From a virus (lineage: Duplodnaviria > Heunggongvirae > Uroviricota > Caudoviricetes): DNA of 64,000 nt. Location of the stretch: positions 42,259-106,258 of IMG/VR virus record IMGVR_UViG_2576861193_000004; one strand, 5' to 3'. The notes beneath the pieces are model-generated. The model was not told where the DNA came from. It did no database searches and worked only from the letters and a program-made list of their open reading frames with translations. The position numbers and the translations under genes were made by a program. Below, piece after piece: positions 7,547-63,173 of this stretch. Within the stretch, counting starts at the first letter, position 1; every line of letters starts with the position of its first letter.

Positions 7547-7570
7547 AATAGTAAGTATATACTTACCAAT
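7547..7570. promoter_or_regulatory. motif-2 palindrome (ATAGGTAA-n-TTACCTAT family)
   Basis: aatagtaagtatatacttaccaat upstream of major tail gene. Confidence 0.45.
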
Positions 7571-14550: not shown

Positions 14551-14570
14551 AGATAATTACTTACCTATCT
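14551..14570. promoter_or_regulatory. motif-2 palindrome
   Basis: agataattacttacctatct between TerL and portal. Confidence 0.45.
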
Positions 14571-31597: not shown

Positions 31598-33631
31598 TTA
31601 CTTAACCTGGTGGCCTGGTTTAGCACCAGCATCCGGGCTTAACAGGAAGATATCTTTCCCGCCGGGGCCAGCAGCCATCACCATGCCTTCGGAGATACCG
31701 AAGCGCATTTTACGCGGAGCCAGGTTAGCCACCATAATGGTGTGACGACCAATCAGTGCCTGTGGGTCTGGATAAGCAGAACGGATGCCTGAGAAGACAT
31801 TACGCTTTTCACCACCGAGATCCAGTGTCAGACGCAGCAGTTTGTCAGAACCTTCGACAAACTCCGCGTTTTCAATCAGCGCCACACGCAGGTCAACTTT
31901 GGCGAAGTCGTCAAAGGTGATGGTTTCCTGAATCGGGTCGTCAGCCAGTGGGCCAGTTACCGGTGCAGCTGTGGCTTTCACTTCTTCTTTGGATGCTTCC
32001 ACCAGTGCTTCCACCTGTTTCATATCGATACGGTTATACAGTGCCTTGAACGGATTCACTTTATGGCCCAGCAGCGGTTGCTGGATACCATCCCAGGTCA
32101 GTTCTGTATTCAGGAATGCTTCTGCACGTTCAGTCAGTTTCGGCAGTACCGGTTTCAGGTACGTCATCAGCACGCGGAACAGGTTAATGCCCATAGAGCA
32201 AATCGCCTGCAGGTCGGCATCGCGGCCTTCCTGCTTCGCCACCACCCACGGAGCCTGTTCATCAACATAGCGGTTAGCCAGGTCAGCCAGTGACATGATT
32301 TCACGGATAGCTTTGCCAAATTCGCGGCTTTCCCACGCTTCACCAATCACTTCAGCGGCATCAGTGAAGGTTTTGTACAGTTGCGGGTCAGCCAGTTCGC
32401 TTGCCAGCACGCCGTCAAAACGTTTGTTGATAAAACCTGCATTACGGGAGGCCAGGTTAACCACTTTGTTCACGATATCGGCATTCACGCGCTGAACAAA
32501 ATCTTCCAGGTTGAGATCGATATCATCAATGCGCGAAGAGAGTTTCGCAGTGTAGTAGTAACGCAGGCTGTCGGCGTCAAAATGATTCAGCCAGGTGCTG
32601 GCTTTAATAAAGGTGCCGCGAGACTTGGACATCTTCGCGCCGTTCACCGTCACATAGCCGTGAACAAACAGGTTGGTCGGCTTGCGGAAGTTGCTGCCTT
32701 CCAGCATGGCAGGCCAGAACAGGCTGTGGAAGTAAACGATATCTTTACCGATGAAGTGGTACAGCTCGGCGGTGGAGTCTTTCTTCCAGTATTCGTCGAA
32801 GCTGGTAGTGTCGCCGCGTTTGTCGCACAGATTCTTGAAGGAACCCATGTAGCCAATCGGCGCGTCCAGCCAGACGTAGAAATATTTGCCCGGTGCGTTC
32901 GGAATTTCAAAACCGAAGTACGGCGCATCGCGGGAGATATCCCACTGTTGCAGGCCAGATTCAAACCACTCCTGCATTTTGTTTGCCACCTGCTCCTGCA
33001 ACGCACCGCTGCGGGTCCATGCCTGCAACATTTCGCTGAAAGAGGGCAGATCAAAGAAGAAGTGTTCAGAATCACGCATTACCGGCGTAGCGCCAGAAAC
33101 CACCGATTTCGGCTCGATCAATTCAGTCGGGCTATATGTTGCGCCGCAGACTTCACAGTTATCGCCGTATTGATCTGGCGCTTTACATTTAGGACAGGTG
33201 CCTTTTACAAAACGGTCCGGCAGGAACATGCCTTTTTCCGGGTCGTACAACTGAGAGATAGTGCGGTTTTTAATAAAACCGTTCTCTTTCAGGCGAGTAT
33301 AGATAAGCTCAGACAACTGACGGTTCTCTTCGCTGTGCGTCGAGTGATAGTTGTCATAGCTGATGTTAAAGCCTGCGAAATCAGTCTGGTGTTCCTGACT
33401 CATTTCGCCAATCATCTGCTCCGGTGTGATACCAAGCTGCTGTGCTTTCAGCATGATCGGCGTACCGTGGGCATCGTCGGCACAGATGAAATTAACCTCG
33501 TGGCCGCGCATTCGCTGGTAACGAACCCAGACATCAGCCTGGATGTGCTCCAGCATATGGCCGAGGTGGATTGAGCCGTTAGCGTACGGCAGCGCGCACG
33601 TCACCAGAATTTTCTTCGCGACTTGGGTCAT
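31598..33631 (-). CDS. metG: methionine--tRNA ligase
   Basis: Translation from [26 protein letters not shown] (HIGH motif) through KMSKS to C-terminal tRNA-binding domain ending [10 protein letters not shown]; 677 aa from ATG 33631; ORF track N-terminal extension rejected. Confidence 0.95.
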
Positions 33632-33788
33632 AGTAGGCATTACTTCTTTGTAGTGAAAAGGGGCTTGATAGTAACAAAATGGCCTTATGTCTGCCATGTG
33701 ATAACAGCATTTCTCATAAATGATTAAATGTCGTAGCTGGAGTACACTACAAGGCGACAATTGCGCAAATTAAAATAAAGGAGACGGG

Positions 33789-34889
33789 ATGAGCGAGTCC
33801 AAATCGCCGGATGCCCTGAGAGCAATGGTAGCCGGTACGCTGGCTAATTTTCAGCACCCAACCCTGAAACACAACCTGACTACGCTTAAAGCGTTACACC
33901 ATGTTGCGTTGATGGATGACACACTGCATGTCGAACTAATCATGCCTTTCGTGTGGAATAAGCCTTTTGAAGACCTGAAAGAGCAATGTAGTGGTGATCT
34001 GCTCCGTATCACTGGCGCAAAGGCTATTGACTGGAAGCTGTCGTACAACATTGCCACGCTTAAGCGCGTCAAAAACCAACCAGGCATTAATGGCGTTAAG
34101 AACATTATCGCCGTCAGCTCAGGCAAGGGCGGCGTGGGTAAATCCTCCACGGCGGTAAACCTGGCACTGGCGTTGGCTGCTGAAGGTGCGAAAGTTGGTA
34201 TTTTGGATGCCGATATCTATGGTCCATCAATTCCAACCATGCTGGGCGCGGAAAACCAACGTCCAACCTCACCTGACGGTACTCACATGGCACCTATCAT
34301 GTCTCATGGCCTGGCAACCAACTCTATTGGTTATCTGGTCACCGACGACAATGCAATGGTGTGGCGTGGACCGATGGCCAGCAAGGCGCTGATGCAGATG
34401 TTGCAGGAAACTCTATGGCCTGATCTGGACTATCTCGTTCTCGATATGCCGCCGGGCACTGGTGATATTCAGTTGACGCTGGCGCAGAACATTCCTGTAA
34501 CTGGTGCGGTTGTGGTAACTACGCCGCAAGACATCGCGCTGATCGATGCGAAGAAAGGCATTGTGATGTTCGAAAAAGTCGAAGTGCCGGTACTGGGTAT
34601 CGTCGAAAACATGAGTGTGCATATTTGCAGTAACTGCGGTCATCACGAGCCAATTTTTGGCACCGGTGGCGCACAGAAACTGGCCGAGAAATACAACACG
34701 CAGTTGTTAGGCCAAATGCCACTTCATATCTCTCTTCGTGAAGATCTGGATAACGGAACACCAACCGTTATTAGTCGTCCAGATAGCGAATTTACGGCTA
34801 TTTATCGTGACCTCGCAGATCGCGTTGCTGCCCAAATGTATTGGCAAGGTGAAGTAATACCTGGCGAAATCGCATTCCGCGCAGTGTGA
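33789..34889 (+). CDS. apbC: Fe-S cluster carrier ATPase ApbC/Mrp
   Basis: 366 aa; Walker A SGKGGVGKS, CxxC-type motif CSNCGH; divergent from metG with a 157-bp intergenic region as in E. coli. Confidence 0.9.
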   Translation: MSESKSPDALRAMVAGTLANFQHPTLKHNLTTLKALHHVALMDDTLHVELIMPFVWNKPFEDLKEQCSGDLLRITGAKAIDWKLSYNIATLKRVKNQPGINGVKNIIAVSSGKGGVGKSSTAVNLALALAAEGAKVGILDADIYGPSIPTMLGAENQRPTSPDGTHMAPIMSHGLATNSIGYLVTDDNAMVWRGPMASKALMQMLQETLWPDLDYLVLDMPPGTGDIQLTLAQNIPVTGAVVVTTPQDIALIDAKKGIVMFEKVEVPVLGIVENMSVHICSNCGHHEPIFGTGGAQKLAEKYNTQLLGQMPLHISLREDLDNGTPTVISRPDSEFTAIYRDLADRVAAQMYWQGEVIPGEIAFRAV

Positions 34890-36804: not shown

Positions 36805-38367
36805 ATGAAAATGACAAGTATTCAACAACGTGCAGAGCTTCATCGTCAAATCTGGCAAATTGCTAACGATGTCAGGGGTTCGGTCGATGGATGGGATTTT
36901 AAGCAATACGTTCTGGGCGCACTTTTCTACCGTTTTATCAGCGAAAATTTTTCCAGTTATATTGAAGCCGGTGATGACAGTATCTGTTATGCGAAACTGG
37001 ATGACAGCGTAATTACTGATGACATTAAAGACGATGCCATCAAAACTAAAGGCTACTTCATCTACCCCAGTCAGCTTTTCTGCAACGTAGCTGCGAAAGC
37101 AAATACTAATGACAGACTGAATGCAGATTTAAACAGCATCTTCGTTGCTATCGAAAGTTCTGCTTACGGTTATCCTTCAGAAGCAGACATCAAAGGTTTG
37201 TTTGCTGATTTCGATACCACCAGTAACCGCCTGGGTAACACCGTTAAAGATAAAAATGCCCGCCTGGCTGCGGTTCTGAAAGGGGTTGAAGGGTTAAAAC
37301 TTGGTGACTTCAACGAACATCAGATTGACCTGTTCGGTGATGCCTATGAGTTCCTGATTTCTAACTATGCGGCAAATGCCGGTAAGTCAGGCGGTGAGTT
37401 CTTTACACCGCAGCACGTCTCCAGGCTGATTGCACAACTGGCAATGCATGGCCAGACCCACGTTAACAAAATCTACGACCCGGCAGCGGGTTCCGGCTCA
37501 CTGTTGTTGCAGGCGAAAAAACAGTTTGATAACCACATCATCGAAGAAGGCTTTTTCGGTCAGGAAATCAACCATACGACCTATAACCTGGCGCGTATGA
37601 ACATGTTTTTGCACAATATCAACTACGACAAGTTTGATATCAAGCTGGGTAATACACTGACTGAGCCGCACTTCAGAGATGAAAAACCGTTTGACGCCAT
37701 CGTATCTAACCCACCGTATTCGGTGAAATGGATTGGCAGCGATGACCCGACGCTGATTAACGATGAGCGTTTTGCCCCGGCTGGCGTTCTGGCCCCCAAA
37801 TCCAAAGCTGACTTTGCGTTTGTATTACATGCACTGAACTATCTTTCTGCCAAAGGTCGTGCTGCGATTGTCTGCTTCCCGGGTATTTTTTACCGTGGCG
37901 GCGCGGAGCAGAAAATCCGTCAGTATCTGGTCGATAATAACTATGTCGAAACCGTGATTTCACTGGCACCGAACCTGTTCTTTGGCACCACCATTGCAGT
38001 AAACATTCTGGTGCTGTCTAAACATAAAACGGATACCAACGTTCAGTTTATTGACGCCAGCGAACTGTTCAAAAAAGAGACTAACAACAATATCCTGACC
38101 GATGCCCATATCGAACAGATTATGCAGGTATTTGCCAGCAAGGAAGATGTTGCTCATCTGGCGAAATCTGTCACGTTTGAGACCGTTGTCGCGAATGACT
38201 ATAACCTGTCGGTAAGCAGCTATGTGGAAGCGAAAGATACTCGCGAAATTATCGATATCGCTGAGTTGAATGCAGAACTGAAAACCACGGTCAGCAAAAT
38301 CGACCAGTTGCGTAAAGATATTGATGCGATTGTGGCTGAAATTGAAGGCTGCGAGGTGCAGAAATGA
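36805..38367 (+). CDS. hsdM: Type I restriction-modification methyltransferase subunit
   Basis: 520 aa; AdoMet motif [10 protein letters not shown], catalytic NPPY (VSNPPYS); start of next gene overlaps stop by 4 nt. Confidence 0.95.
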
Positions 38368-39599
38368 GCGAGTTGAGTTATCTGGAAAAATTGCTGGATG
38401 GGGTTGAGGTTGAGTGGTTGCCATTGGGGAAACTAGGTGAATTAGTTCGTGGAAATGGATTGCCTAAGTCTGATTTTACCGAATCTGGGGTTCCTGCCAT
38501 ACACTATGGTCAGATATATACTTTTTACGGATTATCTACTGAAACAACAAAGTCATTTGTTTCCCATGAAACGGCGAAGAAGCTTAAAAAGGTTAACTCT
38601 GGTGATGTTGTTATTACTAACACAAGCGAAAATTTTACTGATGTTGGTAAGGCGCTTGTTTATCTAGGTAAAGAGCAAGCTGTTACTGGTGGCCATGCAA
38701 CTATTTTCAAGCCAAATAGCACTATTATTGGGAAATACTTTGCCTATTTCACGCAAACGGATTCTTTTGCAAATGAGAAAAGGAAATACTCCAAGGGAAC
38801 TAAAGTAATTGATGTGTCTGCATCGGATATGGCGAAAATTATTATCCCTATCCCCTGTCCGGAAAATCCCAAAAAATCCCTTGCTATCCAGTCTGAAATC
38901 GTTCGGATTCTGGACAAATTTACTGCACTTACCGCTGAGCTTACCGCTGAGCTTACCATGCGTAAAAAACAGTACAACTACTATCGCGACCAATTGCTGA
39001 GTTTTAAAGAAGGTGAGGTTGAGTGGAAAACTTTGGGAGAAGTGGCTCAATACTCGAAAACAAGAATTAGTTTCGAACTACTTGATGAAAGGAATTATGT
39101 TGGCGTAGATAATCTGCTGCAAAACAGAGCAGGAAAATCATTATCTAATCATGTACCCACATCAGGTAAATTAACGGAGTTTATACCTAACGATATACTG
39201 ATTGGGAATATCCGCCCATATTTGAAAAAAATTTGGCAAGCAGATTGTATCGGTGGAACAAATGGCGATGTATTGGTTATTCGTTGCATAGATAGCTCAA
39301 TAAATACCAGATATCTATATCAGATTTTGGCAGATGACAAATTCTTTGAATACAACATGCAGCATGCTAAAGGAGCAAAAATGCCGCGTGGCAGTAAAGA
39401 GGATATAATGAAATACCCAATCCCTGTACCGCCACTCACCTTGCAAGCTCGCATTGTCGAAATACTCAACAAATTCGATACCCTGACAAACTCCATCACT
39501 GAAGGTCTTCCGCGTGAAATCGAATTACGCCAGAAACAATACGAATACTACCGTGATTTACTGTTCAGTTTCCCAAAACCTGAAACTGTCAGTAATTAA
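38364..39599 (+). CDS. hsdS: Type I restriction-modification specificity subunit
   Basis: 411 aa; conserved N-terminal, central ([42 protein letters not shown]) and C-terminal ([35 protein letters not shown]) regions separating two variable target-recognition domains. Confidence 0.9.
38931..38954 (+). repeat. tandem 12-bp repeat (ACCGCTGAGCTT x2) encoding TAEL-TAEL in the HsdS central spacer
   Basis: accgctgagctt accgctgagctt read directly in sequence. Confidence 0.8.
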
Positions 39600-39720
39600 T
39601 TGACCATTGCTACCGACCGGGCCACCTTAACACCCGGTCTGTATATAGACTATTTTTTACGCGCCGGAAGTCACTCTTAACGCCCTTCCGGCCCTTGCCA
39701 GGCGGCACAAAGGATGCGCT

Positions 39721-42700
39721 ATGACTCATCAAACACACACCATTGCTGAATCCAATAACTTTATCGTCCTTGATAAGTACATCAAAGCTGAGCAAACAAG
39801 CGACAGCTACCAGAGCGAATCGGACCTGGAACGTGAACTGATTCAGGACCTGCGGAATCAGGGTTATGAATTTATTTCCGTAAAATCACAGTCGGCAATG
39901 CTGTCCAATGTTCGGGAACAGCTTCAGAGCCTCAATGGTGTGATGTTTAATGACAGCGAGTGGCGGCGCTTCACGGAGCAGTATCTGGACAATCCCAGCG
40001 ATGGTATTCTGGATAAGACCCGTAAAATCCATATCGACTATATCTGCGACTTTATTTTTGACGACGGGCGTCTTGAGAACATCTATCTGATCGATAAAAA
40101 GAATCTCATGCGCAACAAAGTGCAGATTATCCAGCAGTTTGAACAGGCAGGTTCTCATGCTAACCGTTATGACGTCACGATCCTGGTTAATGGCTTGCCT
40201 CTGGTGCAAATCGAACTGAAAAAGCGCGGCGTGGCGATTCGTGAGGCTTTCAACCAGATACATCGTTACAGCAAAGAGAGTTTTAACAGCGAAAATTCCC
40301 TGTTTAAGTATCTGCAACTGTTTGTCATTTCTAACGGCACCGATACCCGTTATTTTGCCAACACCACAAAGCGCGATAAAAACAGTTTTGACTTCACCAT
40401 GAACTGGGCGAAATCAGACAACACGCTGATTAAAGACCTCAAAGACTTTACCGCTACCTTTTTCCAGAAACATACCCTGCTTAATGTTCTGGTGAACTAC
40501 AGCGTGTTTGACAGTAGTCAGACGCTACTGGTGATGCGACCGTACCAGATTGCAGCTACCGAACGGATCTTATGGAAAATCAACAGCTCCTATAAAGCGA
40601 AAAACTGGTCTAACCCCGAAAGCGGTGGCTTTATCTGGCACACCACTGGTTCCGGTAAAACACTGACCAGCTTTAAAGCCGCGCGTCTGGCAACTGAACT
40701 GGACTTTATTGATAAAGTCTTCTTCGTGGTCGACAGGAAAGACCTCGATTACCAGACCATGAAGGAATATCAGCGTTTTTCGCCAGACAGCGTCAACGGC
40801 TCGGAAAATACCGCAGGTCTTAAACGAAATCTGGATAAGGACGATAACAAAATTATCGTCACCACTATTCAGAAACTTAATAACCTGATGAAAGCAGAAA
40901 GCGACCTGCCTGTATACAATCAGCAAGTGGTGTTTATATTTGATGAATGCCACCGCAGCCAGTTTGGAGAAGCGCAGAAAAACCTGAAGAAGAAATTCAA
41001 ACGCTATTATCAGTTTGGTTTTACCGGCACCCCTATTTTCCCGGAAAATGCCTTAGGCTCAGAAACGACCGCCAGCGTATTTGGTCGTGAATTGCATTCG
41101 TATGTAATTACCGATGCGATTCGTGACGAAAAAGTGCTCAAATTCAAGGTGGACTACAACGATGTGCGGCCACAGTTTAAGTCTTTAGAGACAGAAACTG
41201 ACGAGAAAAAACTGAGTGCGGCTGAAAATCAGCAGGCGTTTCTTCATCCCATGCGTATTCAGGAAATCACGCAATATATCCTGAACAACTTCCGCCAGAA
41301 GACTCACCGTACTTACCCCGGCTCCAAAGGTTTTAATGCCATGCTGGCAGTAAGCAGCGTGGATGCCGCGAAAGCCTATTACGCGACGTTTAAACGGTTA
41401 CAAGAGGAAGCCGCTAATAAATCTGCTACCTATAAACCACTGCGTGTTGCGACAATCTTCTCCTTTGCCGCCAATGAAGAACAAAATGCCATTGGTGAAA
41501 TTTCCGATGAAACTTTTGATACCAGCGCAATGGACAGCAGTGCTAAAGAGTTTCTTGACGCTGCAATTCGTGAGTATAACAGCTATTTTAAAACTAACTT
41601 CAGCACCGACAGTAACGGTTTTCAGAACTACTATCGTGATTTAGCCCAACGGGTTAAAAATCAGGATATCGATCTGTTAATTGTCGTTGGGATGTTTTTA
41701 ACCGGCTTCGACGCTCCAACATTGAACACGCTATTCGTCGATAAAAACTTGCGTTTTCACGGCCTGATGCAGGCATTCTCCCGTACCAACCGCATTTATG
41801 ACGCTACTAAAACCTTCGGTAACATCGTCACTTTTCGGGATCTGGAACGCTCAACCATTGATGCCATAACGCTGTTTGGTGATAAAAATACTAAAAATGT
41901 GGTGTTAGAAAAGAGTTATGCAGAGTATATGGAAGGCTTTACTGATGCTGCTACAGGTGAAGCTAAACGCGGCTTTATGGCAGTAGTTTCAGAACTGGAA
42001 CAACGGTTCCCTGACCCTGCCAGTATTGAAAGTGAAAAAGAGAAGAAAGACTTCGTTAAACTGTTTGGCGAATACCTGCGTGCCGAGAACATCCTGCAAA
42101 ACTATGATGAATTTGCCACGCTGAAAGCCCTGCAACAAATCGATCTTAGCGATCCTGTTGCGGTAGAAAAATTCAAAGAAGAACATTATGTGGATGATGA
42201 AAAGTTCGCTGAATTGCAAACGATTCGTCTCCCTGCTGAACGCAAGATTCAGGATTATCGTTCTGCCTATAACGATATTCGTGACTGGCAGCGCCGCGAG
42301 AAAGAAGCTGATAAAAAAGAAAAATCAACCACTGACTGGGATGACGTGGTTTTTGAGGTCGATTTGCTGAAGTCTCAGGAAATAAACCTGGATTATATCC
42401 TTGGACTGATTTTCGAACACAACAGACAAAATAAAGGCAAGGGCGAAATGATCGAAGAGGTCAAACGCTTAATTCGTTCAAGCCTGGGGAACCGGGCGAA
42501 AGAGGGCCTGGTGGTCGATTTTATTCAGCAAACGAACCTGGATGATTTACCAGACAAAGCCAGCATCATTGACGCGTTCTTTACCTTTGCTCAACACGAA
42601 CAGCTACGTGAAGCAGAAGCGTTGATTAAAGAAGAAAATCTCAATGAAGAGGCGGCGAAACGCTATATTCGCACGTCTTTAAAACGCGAATACGCCACCG

Positions 42701-42837
42701 AAAATGGCACAGAATTAAACGAGACATTACCAAAACTTAGTCCGTTAAACCCGCAATATAAAACGAAAAAACAGACGGTTTTCCAGAAAATCGTCACGTT
42801 TATTGAAAAGTTCAAAGGAGTAGGTGGGCAGATATAG
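39721..42837 (+). CDS. hsdR: Type I restriction enzyme R subunit
   Basis: 1038 aa; helicase motifs [12 protein letters not shown] ([11 protein letters not shown]), endonuclease-type N-terminal region; 120-bp gap after hsdS with no intervening gene. Confidence 0.95.
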
Positions 42838-46514: not shown

Positions 46515-46656
46515 GTGGATTCCATTCAGTGTCAGAAAGAGTTGCGGCTGGCCAAGCCAGCCGCCTTTTGGCGTTCCATCCTGGAACCGTACCTAACCGG
46601 TACTTCGTCATCCTGACGATTTATAAGATACCTGATTTATTATAGTGGGTAAATAC

Positions 46657-47265
46657 TTACTTATCTTTTTGTGACAAAAACCCAATGTCATGCTTGTGAG
46701 GCATATCAGCTGCGGAATAGGCGGCGATCTTCGCCAGACGGTCACACATTTCGTTCTCGCGATGACCTGCATGGCCTTTAACCCACTTCCAGCGGACATT
46801 ATGACGACTGGCGGCCGCGTCGAGACGTTTCCAGAGATCCACGTTTTTGACTGGCTTCTTCTCAGACGTGATCCATCCGTTACGCTTCCAGCCTTTCATC
46901 CAGAGCGTCATGCCGTTTTTAAGATACTGGCTGTCGGAATGCAGGATCACGTTGCAGGGGTACTTCAGACGCTCCAGCGCAATCAGGGCGCCCATCATCT
47001 CCATCCGATTGTTGGTCGTGCTGTGAAAGCCCTCAGAAAGCTCGCGCTCTTCGCCTCGATACTGGAGAACGATGCCGTAACCGCCCGGCCCGCCCGGATT
47101 TTTGAGGCAAGAGCCATCACTGAATACTTTTACGGTTTTGAGCTGGGGATTGAACTCGACTACGGGGGTTTTGAAGTTGGTACGGGATTGCTGGTGGGTT
47201 TGGTATCTGGCTTTGGACTTCGTGCGGCAGCCAGTATGTTGCCGGGCTGGGGTCTTGGTCGTCAT
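46657..47265 (-). CDS. rnhA: ribonuclease HI
   Basis: Core [58 protein letters not shown] parallels E. coli RnhA; start set at MTTKT. Confidence 0.8.
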
Positions 47266-47843
47266 TTTGGCTCCAGAATCGCGCGCCGCGACGATTTTTT
47301 TTTCCCTCGCGCGTGTGCGCACGCGTGCGTGTAAATATTAAAAATTTTTTAGAAAAGAAAAATTACTTCCCAGAACAGGTTTTAATAAAACCTGAACTGA
47401 ACGAACGAAGTGAGTGAAGTTCACCTCGAACGAAGTGAGAGGTTGTCTTTTCAGGTAATACTCTCCCAGGGAGGTGAGTACAAAATTACCTCACCAACCT
47501 GGTCGTTTCATAACCTGAAAAGTTATGACCTAAGTCTACTGCCAGCTTAGGCTTGGGAAGTTATGGATGACAGCACCCCAGAACCGAGATCTTCCCACAC
47601 TTTATGAAGGGGAGTACTGGATTCAACCTCTCGAAACACTCCAGACTCGACAATCATAAAGTGACCCTTCTCTCTGCCCACTTTGGTTCCCCCTTCCCCA
47701 ACCCCTAAACGGTGCCGGTTCTACGCTGGTAGTGAGCTTTTTTAAACCTGACGCCAGTGACGCTATCCCCCACCCATCAGGTCGAGCTGCCAAAAGTATC
47801 CGGAAGCGGATAGATTGTATCACTGGTTAGTGGTGTTTTGAAT

Positions 47844-47858
47844 GGTAAGTACTTACAT
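47844..47858. promoter_or_regulatory. motif-2 palindrome
   Basis: ggtaagtacttacat (perfect GTAAGTACTTAC palindrome). Confidence 0.45.
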
Positions 47859-47859
47859 A

Positions 47860-48090
47860 TTATATTGATTGATTAATTTCTCGCCCATGAAGCTGGACGT
47901 TCAGGGCAAACACCTCATTGATGAGTTCCCCTAACAGCTGCTCCACCAGCTCTTTGTGCTCGCCTGAATGAAGACATTTGAGCGACCATTCGTAGAGACT
48001 GAAAGCCTTATCGCGATCTTTCATCATGTCGCGCACTGTGGCCAGAAAATCGCTCTCAACGAGCGCTACGACGTTCGTCGGGTATACCAT
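47860..48090 (-). CDS. hypothetical small protein
   Basis: 76 aa ORF; motif-2 palindrome near 47844-47858. Confidence 0.25.
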   Translation of the reverse strand: MVYPTNVVALVESDFLATVRDMMKDRDKAFSLYEWSLKCLHSGEHKELVEQLLGELINEVFALNVQLHGREINQSI

Positions 48091-48292
48091 GATAGTTTTC
48101 CTTACTGTGGTTCATAAAATCGATTCTAGAGCGTCTGGAGAGGGGCTCCAGTAGGTTCTGAAGGTGTAAAACGGTCTGGGAGTTGTTTGGAAATCACGTC
48201 TTAAAAAGCCTGCGTCTGTATATATTAATAATTAGTACTTAGTTATTTATATATACGGAAGCAGGTTCTCAAACTAACTCCCAGACTGGTGT

Positions 48293-48886
48293 TTACGCTG
48301 CCTTTTTACGTGGTCTCTTCTTCCTGACAACATTGGCAGGGTCATAACCAACCAGCTTTTTCATCACCGCCAGCGGTATTTTACTGATGGTGTGCCCAGC
48401 TTCCTGACAGTAGCCACGGAAGATAAGCAACATGCTGCCACCAGGGTTGATGTCTACTTCCACCAGCCCAAGTTCAACATCCGGCTCAACAAATGCCACG
48501 CGGCCACCTGACAAGATGACTGTTTCGTTTGCGCACTCAGCCGCACGCTCATACCACCGCGTATCGAGGGATTGTGGTATCAGCATGATCGTCGTCACTC
48601 CACGCGTCTGCTCGCGAATGGCCGCTTCTATCCAGGGGGTGATTTTGGAGTAAGGCGGGTTAAGGAACGCCACAGTGCCAGGTTCTCCCCAACTGCACTT
48701 GAGCGCATCACGCTCAACACCGATAAAGTTCGGCAGGAGAGCATTATCTTTGTTGCAGGCGACGTCCACATCGAACTTTACGCCTATGTAACGTTGGATG
48801 GCGACAAACAACCACTGCGGTGTGCGCCAAAGGTCGCGAAGAGAGGCATCACGCTCTCGCTTTTTGATTTTTTCGGCTGCGATCAT
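48293..48886 (-). CDS. phage-type DNA N6-adenine methyltransferase (Dam-like, orphan)
   Basis: 197 aa; WRTPQWLF N-terminus and catalytic NPPYS motif; no adjacent restriction gene. Confidence 0.7.
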   Translation of the reverse strand: MIAAEKIKKRERDASLRDLWRTPQWLFVAIQRYIGVKFDVDVACNKDNALLPNFIGVERDALKCSWGEPGTVAFLNPPYSKITPWIEAAIREQTRGVTTIMLIPQSLDTRWYERAAECANETVILSGGRVAFVEPDVELGLVEVDINPGGSMLLIFRGYCQEAGHTISKIPLAVMKKLVGYDPANVVRKKRPRKKAA

Positions 48887-48896
48887 TACTTTACTC

Positions 48897-48921
48897 TGAT
48901 AGGTAAATACTTACCTATTTT
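48897..48921. promoter_or_regulatory. motif-2 palindrome
   Basis: tgataggtaaatacttacctatttt: perfect ATAGGTAA-ATAC-TTACCTAT, 10 bp upstream of Dam-like gene. Confidence 0.5.
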
Positions 48922-53768: not shown

Positions 53769-53904
53769 ATACAAGTTTATCTGTCAGAAGTGTGTAAGGC
53801 TAGGAGGGGAGTAAAAAAAATGGTGGCTCTTCGGCCACCATTGCAATGAGCAATTAAGAACTTGGACAATAAAACACGCCAAGGCAATATATAATGATAA
53901 GTAC

Positions 53905-54783
53905 TCACTTACAATTATTTTTTACCATCTCGTAAAGAGATGAGGACTTCGCCTTCTCAACAAAGCAAGTCAGATCCACATCGCTGTAGGTGGGAGATTT
54001 GAGGATCTTGCCATCAGAAACCCTGAAACCGATCATCATGTCAGTCCCTTCAGCATGGCAGAAGCCCAGGTCTTCCTTGTCATATTTGCAATTCTCTACC
54101 GCCACACGACGCTCTTCGGCGTCAGCCGGCCACAGCTTGGTCATGTTGGAACGGTGGATTTCTGCCACCAGCTCAACAATATCGATTCCGAGAAAATCAG
54201 CCAGACGGTAGGTCATCATGCAGGCAACGTAGATTTTGTTCATCACGCGGCGCAGCTCCTGCACCAATTCGGAATCGCTTATCGGCTTCGCTTCAAGTTT
54301 GTCAGCCAACGCATTCAGCATTAATGCAGCTTCTTTTGCTTCTTCAAACGGGATAGCCATATCGTCAAAGACCGTGTTGCCCGGAACCATGATGGTGTGG
54401 ATGAAGCGATCAACACTCTGCTCTTGGGTGTAGTAACTCATGCCCGTCGAGATGCCGCCTTTGATGGCCACCATTGTGCCGACGCCCACGTAAAGGAAGT
54501 CAGCCATCGCGTCCAGCAGTGCCGTCATATCCCCATTTTTGGCTGCCGGGATGCCCTCGGTAACTGCTTCTTCGTGGATCAGCTTGGCACGCAGACGCAG
54601 TAATGCCGGATCTGGAATGGCACGGCGTGGGTGCTGAAACAGTGTGTGGAACTGGTCAACCATCAGGTAGATGCTTTCCGTTGTCTTGCCGAAACCGGGA
54701 TTCAACTCGTAAGGCTCTGGTTTAAACCCCACGAGTTTGTCTGCGGCAAGTTTCAGATGATCGGTCAGTTTCGTAAATTTCAT
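53905..54783 (-). CDS. hypothetical protein
   Basis: 292 aa ORF. Confidence 0.3.
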   Translation of the reverse strand: MKFTKLTDHLKLAADKLVGFKPEPYELNPGFGKTTESIYLMVDQFHTLFQHPRRAIPDPALLRLRAKLIHEEAVTEGIPAAKNGDMTALLDAMADFLYVGVGTMVAIKGGISTGMSYYTQEQSVDRFIHTIMVPGNTVFDDMAIPFEEAKEAALMLNALADKLEAKPISDSELVQELRRVMNKIYVACMMTYRLADFLGIDIVELVAEIHRSNMTKLWPADAEERRVAVENCKYDKEDLGFCHAEGTDMMIGFRVSDGKILKSPTYSDVDLTCFVEKAKSSSLYEMVKNNCK

Positions 54784-57113: not shown

Positions 57114-59019
57114 AGCTGCGCCCCTCTTTAACTTCGACAGTGATAATTTCCCGGAACCACGATTTCATCTCTTTGTGGGAGATGATCATCACTGTGCCAC
57201 GTTCACGCGCTTTGGCTTCCAGAATCCCCATGAGACGCTCCAGACCGGCTGTGTCGAGCGCGTCGTCAATTTCATCACCGATAAATAGCTCGATATTCTT
57301 ACTGGCGCGACTGGCAACCAGATCCTGCAAAGCCAGAGAGCACGCAATACGTACCTTACGCTTCTCACCACCAGACAAAGTCTGGAAGGATTTGCTGGAG
57401 CCTGTTTTGATTACGCTGATATTGAATTTGTCGCGATACTCACCTTTCTTCGTTGTCTCCATTGTCGACCATTCGGCAACGATATTGCCGTCCGACAGCG
57501 TGTTGAGATACTCCGCAGTCCTGATGTTCAGGAAAGGCGTAACGGAGGTCAGGATGTGTGAACGCACGCCTGCTGGGGAGTAAACCTGGCGGGCCTTCTC
57601 CAGCAACAGAGCCTGTTCCTGAATGCTCTTTAACTCATTTTTAAGTACTGCATGATTAGATTTATTGGCAGCCAGGTTGTCTTCATGGCGCTTAATAACG
57701 GCCAGAAATGGGTTTGCTTCCGCCATGATGCGATTCACTTCAGTACGCGCCCGCGCAACCATCGCTTCGACGGCCACAACTTCACGTTCGCGATGACGCA
57801 GCGCACTTAGCTCATTGGTCAGGCGTTCTATTGTGGAGATGATTTCTGAGACGTCGGGTGTGGCTGCGACCAGTGCAGACTCGATACCGAGTGCTTTCTC
57901 AAGACGAGTCTTGTGTTGAGCCACTGCCGCTGCTGATGTCTGCGCAAGGCCGATCTCATTGCGCGCTTGTTCAATGAAGCTCTCCTTCACCGTGGATAAA
58001 TCTTCTTCGCAGTAGGGCTTTCCGCACGTAATGCAGGGTGCCCCGATCTTTGTGCTGACCTCTTCAGCTTTGGTTTTAAACGAGCGAGCACGGTTTATCG
58101 ACTCGTTCTGTGCCGCTTCTGAAGTACGGATGCTTGAGCGGATCTCAGTAATAGCACTGCGCACCTTCAGCAGTTTGGCGTCATGCTCTTCTTTGGAGGC
58201 CAGCTTGCTGCGTTCGCCAGCAATCGCATTTTCCGTATCACGGATCTGTTCTGGCAGCGAGCGAATTTCCATCTCGACTTCAGACAGTGTTACCTCCGCG
58301 CCAGCCAAATCGGCTCGGGCCTTGTCCAGACGCTCGCCGCGATCGCGCTCCCAGCTTTCAGAGGACGCTTTGGCCGCCTCAATCTCTGACTGTGCAGTCT
58401 CGATAAGCGTGAGACAGGCGTCCATTTTGGATTTGGTAACGTCCATACGTGCGGCAGCTGCATTAGCACGCTCGCGGGCAATGGCATAGGCTCGCGTCAA
58501 TCGGTCGACGCCAGCAGCTTCTTCAACGATGGTTTTGAGGCTCTTGTCGGACATACCGGGCAGATCTGGCATCGCTTCCTGACTGGCGTAGATGGACGCC
58601 ATGAACACCTCTTTCGATGCCCCAATCAGACGTTCTACGAACGTCTGTGTCAGCGTGTCCTTGCCTTTGGTCATATCACCGTCTTCACCACGGACGATTA
58701 GTCGGTTCTTGAACTCTTTGTGTTTACGATGGCGAATGATCGCGTATTTCTTACCTTCGTCTTCAACTGTAACCATCACACGGCAGTTCTTCTCATGGCC
58801 CGTCGACAGCACGTCATCGCCTTTGACGCCATGTGCAGTCTCACCATACAGACACCACATTAAGCTATTCATCAGAGTGGATTTCCCGGCGCCATTGCTG
58901 GCAGCAGACGTATCGCCACTGTTCACACCCTGGATCAGCACCAGTCCACGCTGGTCTAACTCGACTTCTGCGCTGGCGATTGCCATAAAATTTTCAACCT
59001 GGAGCTTTAAAAACTTCAT
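57103..59019 (-). CDS. sbcC: SbcC/Rad50-like recombination ATPase
   Basis: Start set at MKFLKLQVENFMAI; Walker A NGAGKST, long coiled coil, signature LSGGEKRKV, Walker B FIGDEIDDALD. Confidence 0.75.
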   Translation of the reverse strand: MKFLKLQVENFMAIASAEVELDQRGLVLIQGVNSGDTSAASNGAGKSTLMNSLMWCLYGETAHGVKGDDVLSTGHEKNCRVMVTVEDEGKKYAIIRHRKHKEFKNRLIVRGEDGDMTKGKDTLTQTFVERLIGASKEVFMASIYASQEAMPDLPGMSDKSLKTIVEEAAGVDRLTRAYAIARERANAAAARMDVTKSKMDACLTLIETAQSEIEAAKASSESWERDRGERLDKARADLAGAEVTLSEVEMEIRSLPEQIRDTENAIAGERSKLASKEEHDAKLLKVRSAITEIRSSIRTSEAAQNESINRARSFKTKAEEVSTKIGAPCITCGKPYCEEDLSTVKESFIEQARNEIGLAQTSAAAVAQHKTRLEKALGIESALVAATPDVSEIISTIERLTNELSALRHREREVVAVEAMVARARTEVNRIMAEANPFLAVIKRHEDNLAANKSNHAVLKNELKSIQEQALLLEKARQVYSPAGVRSHILTSVTPFLNIRTAEYLNTLSDGNIVAEWSTMETTKKGEYRDKFNISVIKTGSSKSFQTLSGGEKRKVRIACSLALQDLVASRASKNIELFIGDEIDDALDTAGLERLMGILEAKARERGTVMIISHKEMKSWFREIITVEVKEGRSYVV

Positions 59020-61460: not shown

Positions 61461-61677
61461 TTATTCACAGGCCCGATCCAATATTTAGATCCCCAGAGAG
61501 ATCCTACAGAAGATCAAAAGAGATCCCAGATCGTCTCCAGCGCTTGCGGTTACTGGCTTGAGAAGGGGTTACTATCCACTATAGGGAGCAAAATAACCAC
61601 TGTAGAGAGCATAATAACCGCTATGAAGAGCAAAACAACCTCTCTGGAGAGTAGTCGGTATCCACTGTAGTGAGTAG
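61461..61677 (+). promoter_or_regulatory. origin-like region copy 1: DnaA box, GATC cluster, iterons
   Basis: TTATTCACA (61461-61469); six GATC within about 70 bp (61475-61542); then 4-5 iterons with core CCACTRTAGRGAG (61571-61677). Confidence 0.6.
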
Positions 61678-61844: not shown

Positions 61845-62075
61845 GGCCCGATCCAGTAATTCAGATCCCTGTTAGAACCAAAGAGAACCACAAAGACCCA
61901 AAGAGATCCCCGGCCCCTGCAAACCGTTGTGCCACATGGCTTTAGAGGTTATCGATATCCACTATAGTGAGAATAACAACCACTATAGAGAGTAAATCAA
62001 CCACTATGGAGAGTAGAAAAACCGCTGTAGGCGGTAGGATAACCACTGTGATGGGTGCTACTATCCACTGTAATC
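61845..62075 (+). promoter_or_regulatory. origin-like region copy 2: DnaA box, GATC sites, iterons upstream of repA
   Basis: TTATACACA (61845-61853) followed by cacaggcccgatccagtaattcagatccc (near-copy of 61466-61492), then 5 iterons (61955-62075). Confidence 0.6.
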
Positions 62076-62117: not shown

Positions 62118-63173
62118 ATGAGCGTAAACGACAATAAAAACATTGCGATAAGCGAAGCATTTTCCGAAACAGACAAAAAGACCGGCGAAGTTGTTACGTT
62201 AGTTCCTAACACCAACAACACAGTTCAGCCTGTTGCTCTGATGCGTCTTGGTCTCTTCGTTCCGACGCTGAAATCGACATCCAGGGGTAGAAAGGGGCAA
62301 ATGGTCTCTATGGACGCCTCCGCTGAACTCAAACAGCTGTCTCTGGCCAAAGCCGAAGGGTACGAGGATATAAGGATTGCTGGTCTTCGTCTTGATATGG
62401 ATAACGATTTCAAAACATGGGTGGGCATCATCCACGCGTTCGCCAAGCACAAGGTTGTTGGTGACACCGTCACGTTGCCGTTCGTCGAGTTCGTCAGACT
62501 TTGTGGCATACCAACAGCCAGATCGTCCGCGAAGTTACGTAAGCGCCTGGACAGCTCTCTAAGTCGTATCGCCACAAACACCATCTCATTCCGCAGCAAA
62601 GGCTCTGAAGAGTATTACGTTACGCACCTTGTGCAGACGGCAAAGTACAGTACCAAGAATGACACGGTCGAACTGAAGGCCGATCCTAAGATTTTCGAAC
62701 TTTACCAGTTCGACAAAAAGGTGCTTTTGCAACTTCGGGCCATCAACGAACTCTCCAGAAAGGAATCCGCGCAGGCGCTCTACACCTTCATTGAAAGTTT
62801 GCCACCAGACCCGGCGCCAATCTCATTGGCTCGCTTACGCGCCAGACTTAACTTAACCAGCCGTACCATTACCCAGAATGCGACAGTCAGGAAGGCGATG
62901 GAGCAACTGCGAGAGATCGGCTATCTCGATTACACTGAAGTGAAACGCGGCAGCTCGGTCTACTTCGTCATCCACTATAGACGGCCGAAGTTACGTTCGG
63001 CACTGCCGCCATCTATGGCCACGCCTGAAGATCCAGAAGATATCTTGTCAGGTGATGATCCGGAGGACATTATCGATGTTGCTCCTGAAGAAAAAGACGG
63101 GGAAATGGTCATGTTGAGCAAGGAAGAACTGGCGATTCTCGAAGAGCTGCGCAAGGCAAAGGCTCGCAAATAG
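62118..63173 (+). CDS. repA: iteron-binding plasmid replication initiator RepA (P1/RepFIB type)
   Basis: 351 aa; [62 protein letters not shown]; flanked by iteron arrays. Confidence 0.75.

Follow-up and report, generated by a model that had tools for sequence, protein, structure and literature searches.

Temperate phages and phage-plasmids are known to produce small immunity RNAs in the lysogenic state: the c4 RNAs of P1 and P7, the CI RNA of P4, and the CA RNA of N15 are ~77 to 80 nt long, are processed from a leader with a constitutive promoter, and recognize complementary sites in the same operon via two loops. Much larger are GOLLD, ROOL, OLE, raiA, and HEARO, RNAs of several hundred nucleotides with many covarying helices and invariant junctions that were found comparatively in long conserved intergenic regions; GOLLD and ROOL are often prophage borne. 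Plasmids also encode ColE1 RNA II, a structured, G-rich RNA of ~550 nt with a constitutive promoter and a functional tie to RNase H, and the repeat-bearing RNAs ToxI and hok/sok, which have their own promoter and show a strong drop in transcript before the next gene. Here, we describe an element that shares traits with these RNAs in a 64,000-nt stretch of DNA from a virus of the class Caudoviricetes (IMG/VR record IMGVR_UViG_2576861193_000004, positions 42,259 to 106,258), the whole of which is referred to below as the window. The element lies in the spacer between the genes for RNase HI and for a protein of 76 amino acids (aa), and this spacer very probably holds an independently transcribed gene for a structured RNA. 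Such an RNA would represent a previously unannotated large structured RNA family that is widespread in clinically common phage-plasmids. The locus consists of the following parts:

47360..47807, minus strand: structured noncoding RNA of ~448 nt, recognized by conservation, covariation, an excess of G·U pairs, alignment folding energies, and the transcript named CYRAN_81.
46657..47265, minus strand: RNase HI gene, 202 aa (PF00075, E 7e-46), the downstream neighbor of the RNA in the main lineage only.
47860..48090, minus strand: 76-aa gene, function unassigned, the upstream neighbor of the RNA in every lineage examined.

With the c4, CI, and CA RNAs, the new RNA shares its origin from a phage-plasmid, a putative constitutive promoter that would act in the lysogenic state, a possible recognition via two loops, and a position on the same strand as, and upstream of, a block with an anti-repressor gene (Ant or Rha in SSU5 and relatives). 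It differs in its length of ~450 nt, its ~17 helices and probable pseudoknot, and the lack of a complementary site in the plasmid. For these reasons, and because there was no C4 (RF01695) match, an immunity RNA of the P1 c4 or P4 CI type was rejected. Size, helices, invariant junctions, and prophage linkage recall GOLLD, ROOL, OLE, raiA, and HEARO, but the new RNA has no match in Rfam 15, occurs only in phage-plasmids of the Enterobacteriaceae, and has no neighboring tRNAs. Likewise, the new RNA shows no sequence similarity to ColE1 RNA II, no antisense promoter facing its 5' end was found, and its linkage to RNase H is not conserved; the replicon has an iteron-type Rep3 origin 14 kb off. The likeness to ToxI and hok/sok extends to the expressing element, a plasmid prophage with several addiction modules. 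However, the repeats are two 13-nt copies within a large unique fold and not tandem 34- to 36-nt units as in ToxI, the downstream gene is variable, and there is neither an endoribonuclease toxin nor a conserved hydrophobic small open reading frame (ORF). A type III toxin-antitoxin (ToxIN-like) module was discarded on similar grounds, the two repeats starting 25 nt apart and the downstream gene encoding RNase HI, an unknown, or a Tad2-like protein.

When the window was aligned with seven relatives, the core of the element (47400-47750) proved to be the most conserved stretch of its neighborhood, with 92 to 100% identity in relatives from Salmonella, Escherichia, Klebsiella, Enterobacter, and Buttiauxella. 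The RNase H and 76-aa genes on either side reach only 72 to 86% in the relatives from E. coli LF82, Klebsiella, and Buttiauxella. Selection on the nucleotides is thus stronger than on the proteins, which argues that the element functions as RNA or DNA. In Klebsiella phages and E. coli plasmids, the BLAST matches break off sharply at ~47360 and ~47786. Contigs that carry the most distant homologues of the 76-aa protein define a second clade, with the element at the same position and 69% identity over 47402-47778, and intermediates of 79% and 85% identity connect the two clades.

By itself, the spacer folds better than shuffled sequences on both strands (z about -3.3 to -3.6). Covariation was judged from an alignment of 21 sequences covering both clades, in which RNAalifold predicted 107 pairs, 37 of them with compensatory double changes, and in which 98.5% of the cells of the nested structure are paired. 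When the 3' partners were slid by 1 to 3 columns, 2 to 7 pairs were changed on both sides and the covariation score was at most 0.087, compared with 37 of 105 pairs and 0.306 in the true register; none of 500 shuffles reached the observed values. One apical loop alternates among GUUUA, UUUU, UUCG, and GAAA in the different lineages, and the exchange of such tetraloops is typical of RNA hairpins. On the minus strand, the paired cells include 301 G·U and 6 A·C combinations, and the folding energy of the alignment is -94 kcal/mol, versus -61 kcal/mol for the opposite strand. This excess of G·U pairs and the folding energies place the RNA on the minus strand, the same as the flanking genes.

Read from 5' to 3', the fold starts with a 5' hairpin, followed by a long hairpin with the invariant sequence GGGUGGnGG...UGGC and a multibranch domain that contains an invariant ACCAGCG and a 35-nt purine-rich tract. 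Next come five hairpins, a linker that takes part in a pseudoknot, and two adjacent twin hairpins. The invariant internal loops and junctions include GGGUGGnGG, ACCAGCG, GAUCUnGnUUCUGGG, and CUGGCA. The two sides of the probable pseudoknot are the following:

47513..47522, minus strand: loop side in hairpin H13, RNA CUUUUCAGGU, pairing with 47447-47456.
47447..47456, minus strand: linker side, RNA ACCUGAAAAG, pairing with 47513-47522.

A C and its partner G are codeleted in the relative L064, and an A-U pair is swapped to U-A in the distant clade, where the pairing becomes UUCUGG/CCAGAA. These two observations suggest that the long-range pairing of CUUUUCAGGU with ACCUGAAAAG is a probable pseudoknot and hence that the RNA holds at least one. 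The search for further pseudoknots by covariation was confounded by the fact that the data are essentially two clades. Three other structures were considered and rejected. The G-runs of a potential G-quadruplex are absent from the distant clade; a switch in which CUCACU of H3 would pair with the loop repeats is contradicted by the covariation of H3 to CCUGUU/AGCAGG in that clade while the loops stay the same; and only some lineages allow H2 to pair with the promoter sequence CCAGTG or H10 with the 3' tail.

A candidate sigma-70-type promoter is located directly 5' of the variable hairpin H1:

47837..47842, minus strand: -35 element TTCAAA, from a consensus scan; TTTACA, TTTACC, and similar in relatives.
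47814..47822, minus strand: extended -10 element TGaTACAAT; TAnnAT is invariant in 21 of 21 aligned sequences.
47786..47807, minus strand: 5'-terminal hairpin H1, highly variable in sequence, with 97.6% of its cells paired and five of six pairs changed on both sides.

The position of this promoter and its 17-nt spacing are kept in every lineage examined, although the 17 nt between the two elements are unrelated in sequence. The TGn before the -10 element is found in all but the Klebsiella lineages, where the TG is one base nearer. An invariant G at 47807, 7 nt past the -10 element, is the first base of H1 and is the predicted 5' end of the RNA. At the other side, conservation of the core stops at ~47360 (...UUCUGGGAAGUAAU), beyond which the sequence is variable and rich in U.

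Transcription of the locus has been recorded under the name of a small ORF. In the annotation of phage Cyrano, CYRAN_81 is a 44-aa ORF within the RNA element:

47547..47681, minus strand: 44-aa ORF, equivalent to CYRAN_81 of phage Cyrano; noncoding, the RNA having been counted under its name in RNA sequencing.

Misson et al. (PMC9928086) include CYRAN_81 among the prophage genes that LF82 lysogens express, 12-fold over the prophage background. Their S1 Table lists 113 and 121 fragments per kilobase per million (fpkm), gene counts whose strand specificity is unconfirmed, next to 8 to 10 fpkm for each of the neighbors, the 76-aa gene CYRAN_80 and the RNase H gene CYRAN_82. The RNA region is 12- to 40-fold above both neighbors in the E. 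coli LF82 lysogen, and the log2 value of CYRAN_81, which is 6.9 in LB, climbs to 10.3 in macrophages at 6 h (PMC9928086). Plus and minus strands are plotted separately in that paper, which implies stranded libraries. The data point to a discrete transcript that spans the element in lysogens, at a level equal to that of the master repressor and with silent neighbors.

A preliminary description of the spacer had proposed that it might hold a structured noncoding RNA, a recombination or packaging site, or a complex promoter, and had named the absence of a transcript and of conservation in relatives as findings that would speak against it. The first option is now strongly supported by the covariation, the conservation, and the CYRAN_81 transcript (PMC9928086): a transcript exists at the locus, and conservation and covariation among relatives are strong. 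Nothing supports a recombination or packaging site, and the plasmid origin lies elsewhere. The proposed search with the Rfam covariance models returned no family match. Helix-preserving covariation, G·U asymmetry, a promoter, and a transcript (Table 1 and S1 Table of PMC9928086) are, taken together, what is generally seen for a structured-RNA gene.

How such an RNA might act is suggested by the twin hairpins near its 3' end, each of which contains one copy of a 13-nt repeat:

47427..47439, minus strand: first repeat copy, RNA CUCACUUCGUUCG, almost invariant in both clades.
47402..47414, minus strand: second repeat copy, in the apical part of hairpin H16.

In the first copy, UCACUUCGUUC forms the 11-nt loop of hairpin H15 on a CCUC/GAGG stem. 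The apical part of H16 presents UCACUCACUUCGUUCG, and its outer stem covaries between GAACU/AGUUC and GAAACC/GGUUUC. In the distant clade, the repeats read UCACUCCGUUC and UCACAUUCGUUC. The nearly invariant twin sequence UCACUUCGUUCG contains two UUCG motifs of the YUNR type; antisense RNAs of plasmids and phages likewise have YUNR-type turns in their recognition loops. We propose, with roughly balanced confidence, that the RNA is a stand-alone, trans-acting molecule that works via these twin loops. A sigma-70 promoter on the minus strand would produce a stable, highly structured RNA of ~450 nt starting at G47807, in which ~16 helices beyond H1 and one probable pseudoknot are kept by compensatory changes between clades that are 59 to 69% identical. 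The RNA might then act as a free-standing trans molecule of the plasmid (lysogenic) state and recognize its partner mainly via the two adjacent hairpins, and probably also via other invariant loops. This partner could be a nucleic acid that forms kissing contacts with the loops or a dimeric protein; the rest of the fold may serve as a rigid scaffold.

Several observations weigh against this proposal. The passages of PMC9928086 do not state whether the counts for CYRAN_81 are strand specific. Near the 3' end of the RNA, which is unmapped, a canonical intrinsic terminator was not found. Since there are only two deep clades, many of the compensatory changes trace to a single split, and the independent events are fewer than the cells. 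No site complementary to the twin loops was detected in the whole 112-kb plasmid, including the window. Finally, a pseudoknotted fold of ~450 nt is much more elaborate than known base-pairing regulators require and leaves room for a role as protein scaffold or catalyst. A scan of the whole plasmid by duplex energy, with the twin loops and five other conserved unpaired segments as queries, returned only self-antisense hits and one 13-bp match of the H12 loop in an AAA-ATPase gene (~58885-58900), which we regard as due to chance after multiple testing. With no partner on the element itself, the partner would have to come from the host or from a competing element, or be a protein.

Conceivably, the RNA could work as a large scaffold that binds proteins, as a sponge, or as a catalyst, with the twin loops as just one of several functional surfaces; it would then group with the large, complex-folded RNAs of bacteria and not with antisense-type regulators. 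Its ~450 nt, ~17 helices, pseudoknot, and many invariant internal loops and junctions would fit such a function, as would its conservation, which is stricter than that of the neighboring proteins, and the lack of a base-pairing target in the element's own genome. However, Rfam contains no matching ribozyme or large-RNA family, and the only gene constantly associated with the RNA is the 76-aa gene, which is not coexpressed in lysogeny according to the values cited from PMC9928086. Homologues of the 76-aa protein are found only within this phage-plasmid group, and its three-helix model (predicted local distance difference test score of 80) has no fold match in the PDB and no Pfam family. On balance, we consider such a function unlikely, though it deserves serious attention. 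We hold equally tentatively the broader possibility that the RNA is the first representative of a new class of large pseudoknotted RNAs specific to phage-plasmids, that it works as a ribonucleoprotein or catalytic RNA rather than as a simple antisense regulator, and that it is needed for the SSU5/pHCM2-type plasmid-prophage state or for countering host defense.

A cis-acting role is harder to maintain. As a leader, attenuator, or riboswitch-like element, the RNA would regulate read-through to RNase H and beyond, including the anti-repressor gene, with most transcripts stopping short of the next gene until some signal lets them continue. It is oriented like the genes that follow, its 3' region could pair in alternative ways, and the lysogen data cited above show ample RNA but a silent downstream gene, as for riboswitches in the OFF state. 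What comes after it varies, though: RNase HI in the main lineage, a Tad2-like protein in L060 and L061, and, in L057 and L062, a 200-aa protein whose family is unknown. In Buttiauxella, convergent genes for an AAA-ATPase and UvrD replace the downstream gene, with the RNA being kept. Given these changing genes, the RNA is not tied to RNase H. In L060, moreover, the next gene is separated from the RNA by a promoter that resembles the consensus (TTGACT, 17 nt, TAAATT), and no terminator/antiterminator pair is conserved in both clades. With four downstream contexts and no conserved intrinsic terminator, a cis leader or riboswitch was rejected by the usual standards, and we rate it as decidedly improbable.

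The same context dependency argues against a replication primer, which would form an R-loop origin for lytic replication and be processed by the adjacent RNase HI, as at ColE1 and mitochondrial origins. The RNA strand is G rich with an A+T-rich stretch just downstream, RNase HI adjoins in the main lineage, and the element is part of a DNA-metabolism module. Against this, RNase HI is not the neighbor in other lineages, the G-runs are not conserved in the distant clade, and selection on the RNA fold extends along the whole length. The RNA is also produced in the lysogenic state (PMC9928086), in which no lytic replication takes place. The GC skew does not turn at this position. Instead, the plasmid-mode replicon is located 14 kb away, which also led us to discard a plasmid origin at the spacer:

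62118-63173: Rep3-family initiator gene of the plasmid-mode replicon.
61576-61651 and 61959-62030: two arrays of 21-bp iterons (CCACTATAGAGAGCAAAATAA), upstream of the Rep3 gene.

Rep3 and the iterons sit at the minimum of the cumulative GC skew. A ColE1-type origin was rejected on account of this Rep3 initiator, of the absence of a plus-strand promoter-like site inside the RNA, and of the RNase H gene not being downstream elsewhere. The similarity to ColE1 RNA II (A6..CUACCAGCG) is not significant, since 136 of 300 shuffles scored at least as high as observed against an RNA II sequence. A primer thus seems very unlikely to us.

Still less probable is a function at the DNA level, i.e., as a packaging, recombination, or single-strand initiation site or as a cluster of protein-binding sites. 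Although nucleotide conservation is very high, repeats and palindromes are present, and several database records begin near the region, the double compensatory changes in ~17 helices and the 301-to-6 ratio of G·U to A·C reveal selection on one folded strand, the lineages exchange RNA-type UUCG and GAAA tetraloops, the promoter is conserved and a transcript has been reported (PMC9928086), and the terminase genes are ~30 kb away. We attach next to no weight to a small protein encoded by CYRAN_81, because this ORF, which does have a GTG start and is annotated in one record, is intact in just 40 of 65 distinct homologues, has variable columns spread as 27/25/25 over the codon positions with no third-position bias, suffers 1-nt indels in Klebsiella, Buttiauxella, and the distant clade, and coincides with no gene called by PGAP in the E. 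coli records among the matches listed (232 genomes with a match). The CYRAN_81 "moron" protein gene of the literature is thus a misannotation, which is corrected here. In the same data set (PMC9928086), CYRAN_43 (OV696614 40268-40822, outside the window), annotated as a hypothetical protein, exceeds the background 723-fold in lysogens and may represent another unrecognized RNA.

Known RNA families provided no alternative identity. Rfam 15 (4227 models) gave no hit in the whole window at gathering thresholds and, at E <=10 on 47100-48350, only a chance microRNA hit inside the RNA; the distant-clade homologue L060 had no family match either, and a scan for tRNA and tmRNA found none. A likeness of the 5' part to 16S rRNA (CCUGAUGG..GGGGGAUA..ACUGG) was dismissed, as 24 of 300 shuffles scored as high. 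The spacer between the 76-aa gene and a Dam methylase gene contains a long, A+T-rich, near-perfect hairpin or palindrome (ctgcgtctgtatatattaataattagtacttagttatttatatatacggaagcagg, 48176-48288), which accounts for spurious hits to microRNA families.

The boundaries and sequence features of the spacer given in the preliminary description can now be reassessed. It had started a 540-bp spacer at 47323, which is the GTG of the longest ORF. In relatives, the annotated rnhA of 202 aa corresponds to the ATG at 47265, which has a GGAG, so the true spacer is 594 bp long (47266-47859). As had been stated, there is no plausible ORF in it, the longest being 66, 46, and 44 aa. The partial inverted repeats gaggtgag (47471-47478) and ctcacc (47490-47495) are present and together form a stem of the RNA. 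What had been called a tandem repeat is an exact 13-nt direct repeat (CGAACGAAGTGAG, 47402-47414 and 47427-47439), for which the estimated probability of a chance occurrence in 594 bp is ~0.003; its copies start 25 nt apart and are not arranged head to tail. A T9 run (47295-47303), an alternating purine-pyrimidine tract (cgcgcgtgtgcgcacgcgtgcgtg, 47308-47331), and a perfect 12-bp palindrome at the end of the spacer (GTAAGTACTTAC, 47845-47856; the motif occurs 17 times in the window versus 1.3 expected) are likewise as described. As pointers to function, the tandem and inverted repeats held up, being parts of RNA hairpins, whereas the T9 run, the Z-DNA-prone tract, and the palindrome lie outside the RNA, the first two of them between its 3' end and the RNase H gene:

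47279..47303, plus strand: terminator-like hairpin TCGCGCGCCGCGA followed by T9, oriented against the RNA.
47304..47331, no strand assigned: GC-rich alternating tract, of which only the box CGCGCGAG(G) plus an A-run recurs among lineages.
47332..47359, no strand assigned: A+T-rich, poorly conserved stretch after the RNA core, U rich on the RNA strand (UUUUUCUUUUCU...).
47845..47856, no strand assigned: palindrome GTAAGTACTTAC, 2 nt upstream of the -35 element, one of the 17 sites in the window.

The box CGCGCGAG(G) followed by an A-run (on the RNA strand; 47304-47313 in the window) is found with slight variants 60 to 100 nt past the RNA core. It is kept regardless of the next gene in the window, SSU5, Cyrano, Klebsiella, Buttiauxella, L057, L060, L062, L064, and L065, and the remainder of the Z-DNA-prone tract is not conserved. 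Possibly, the box could be part of the 3' end of the RNA or a site for a protein. The 17 occurrences of the GTAAGTACTTAC palindrome (counted with <=2 mismatches) are mostly at gene boundaries on the long minus-strand operons, e.g., at 46649-46660, 47845-47856, 48903-48914, 7551-7566, 14553-14564, and 53897-53908; it is probably a binding site for a phage regulator or a signal for processing or termination.

The region of the window matches Salmonella phage SSU5 (95.6% identity), Escherichia phage Cyrano (pLF82), and Klebsiella phage-plasmids by BLAST, as well as 687 PLSDB plasmids of ~105 to 120 kb that are almost all nonmobilizable and come from Klebsiella, Escherichia, Enterobacter, Salmonella, Citrobacter, Cronobacter, and other hosts. 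From these matches, the window is part of a phage-plasmid of the SSU5/pHCM2/pLF82 type; at the locus itself, the E. coli plasmid pYLPD4a is 99.8 to 100% identical. Besides the 687 plasmids, the element is present in 12 phage records, 78 IMG/VR contigs, and 232 of 5426 complete E. coli genomes (~4%). A second motif pattern retrieved 56 metagenome contigs, all of them true members; the long ones are ~105 to 120 kb, and many come from human-gut assemblies. In 185,579 species-representative genomes, a degenerate pattern of the invariant motifs found true members only in Kluyvera (two hits), the remaining hits being due to chance, mostly in GC-rich genomes and mltG. Members were separated from nonmembers by nhmmer. 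Judged by these sequence searches, the RNA family appears to be confined to this phage-plasmid group in Enterobacteriaceae.

Clinical Klebsiella, E. coli, Enterobacter, and Salmonella commonly harbor phage-plasmids of the SSU5/pHCM2/pLF82 type. These elements can carry resistance genes, and little is understood of how their lysogeny is controlled. With its expression in the lysogen and a conservation that exceeds that of the proteins, an RNA that neither Rfam nor RefSeq annotates is an obvious candidate for a central function in maintenance or host interaction, such as immunity, control of copy number or of the host, or antidefense. It is also a large structured E. coli RNA that lends itself to experiments; its alignment, strand, and promoter are available, along with a twin-loop hypothesis that can be tested.

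Two further observations concern the surroundings of the RNA in relatives. The position just past it is a hot spot for gene exchange, occupied by a Tad2-like anti-Thoeris gene (L060:4931-5242), AAA-ATPase and UvrD-helicase genes (L002:1-2380), the gene for the 200-aa protein (L057:4829-5431), or that for RNase HI, depending on the lineage. In a Logan contig of a more distant relative (ERR3061939, L063:3226-3938), the same position, between a 74-aa homologue and two RNase H genes, is taken by an unrelated, ORF-free spacer of 714 nt. This spacer, too, has a 5' hairpin preceded by a promoter-like site, and its folding is far better than that of shuffles (z = -7.0); nhmmer detected no homology, and Rfam gave no match for it. 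This spacer may hold an analogous or very diverged RNA. Elsewhere in the window, names taken from the annotation of pYLPD4a identify host-like metG (methionine-tRNA ligase; 31598-33760) and apbC (33789-34889) genes and a complete type I restriction-modification system, hsdM, hsdS, and hsdR, at 36805-42837.

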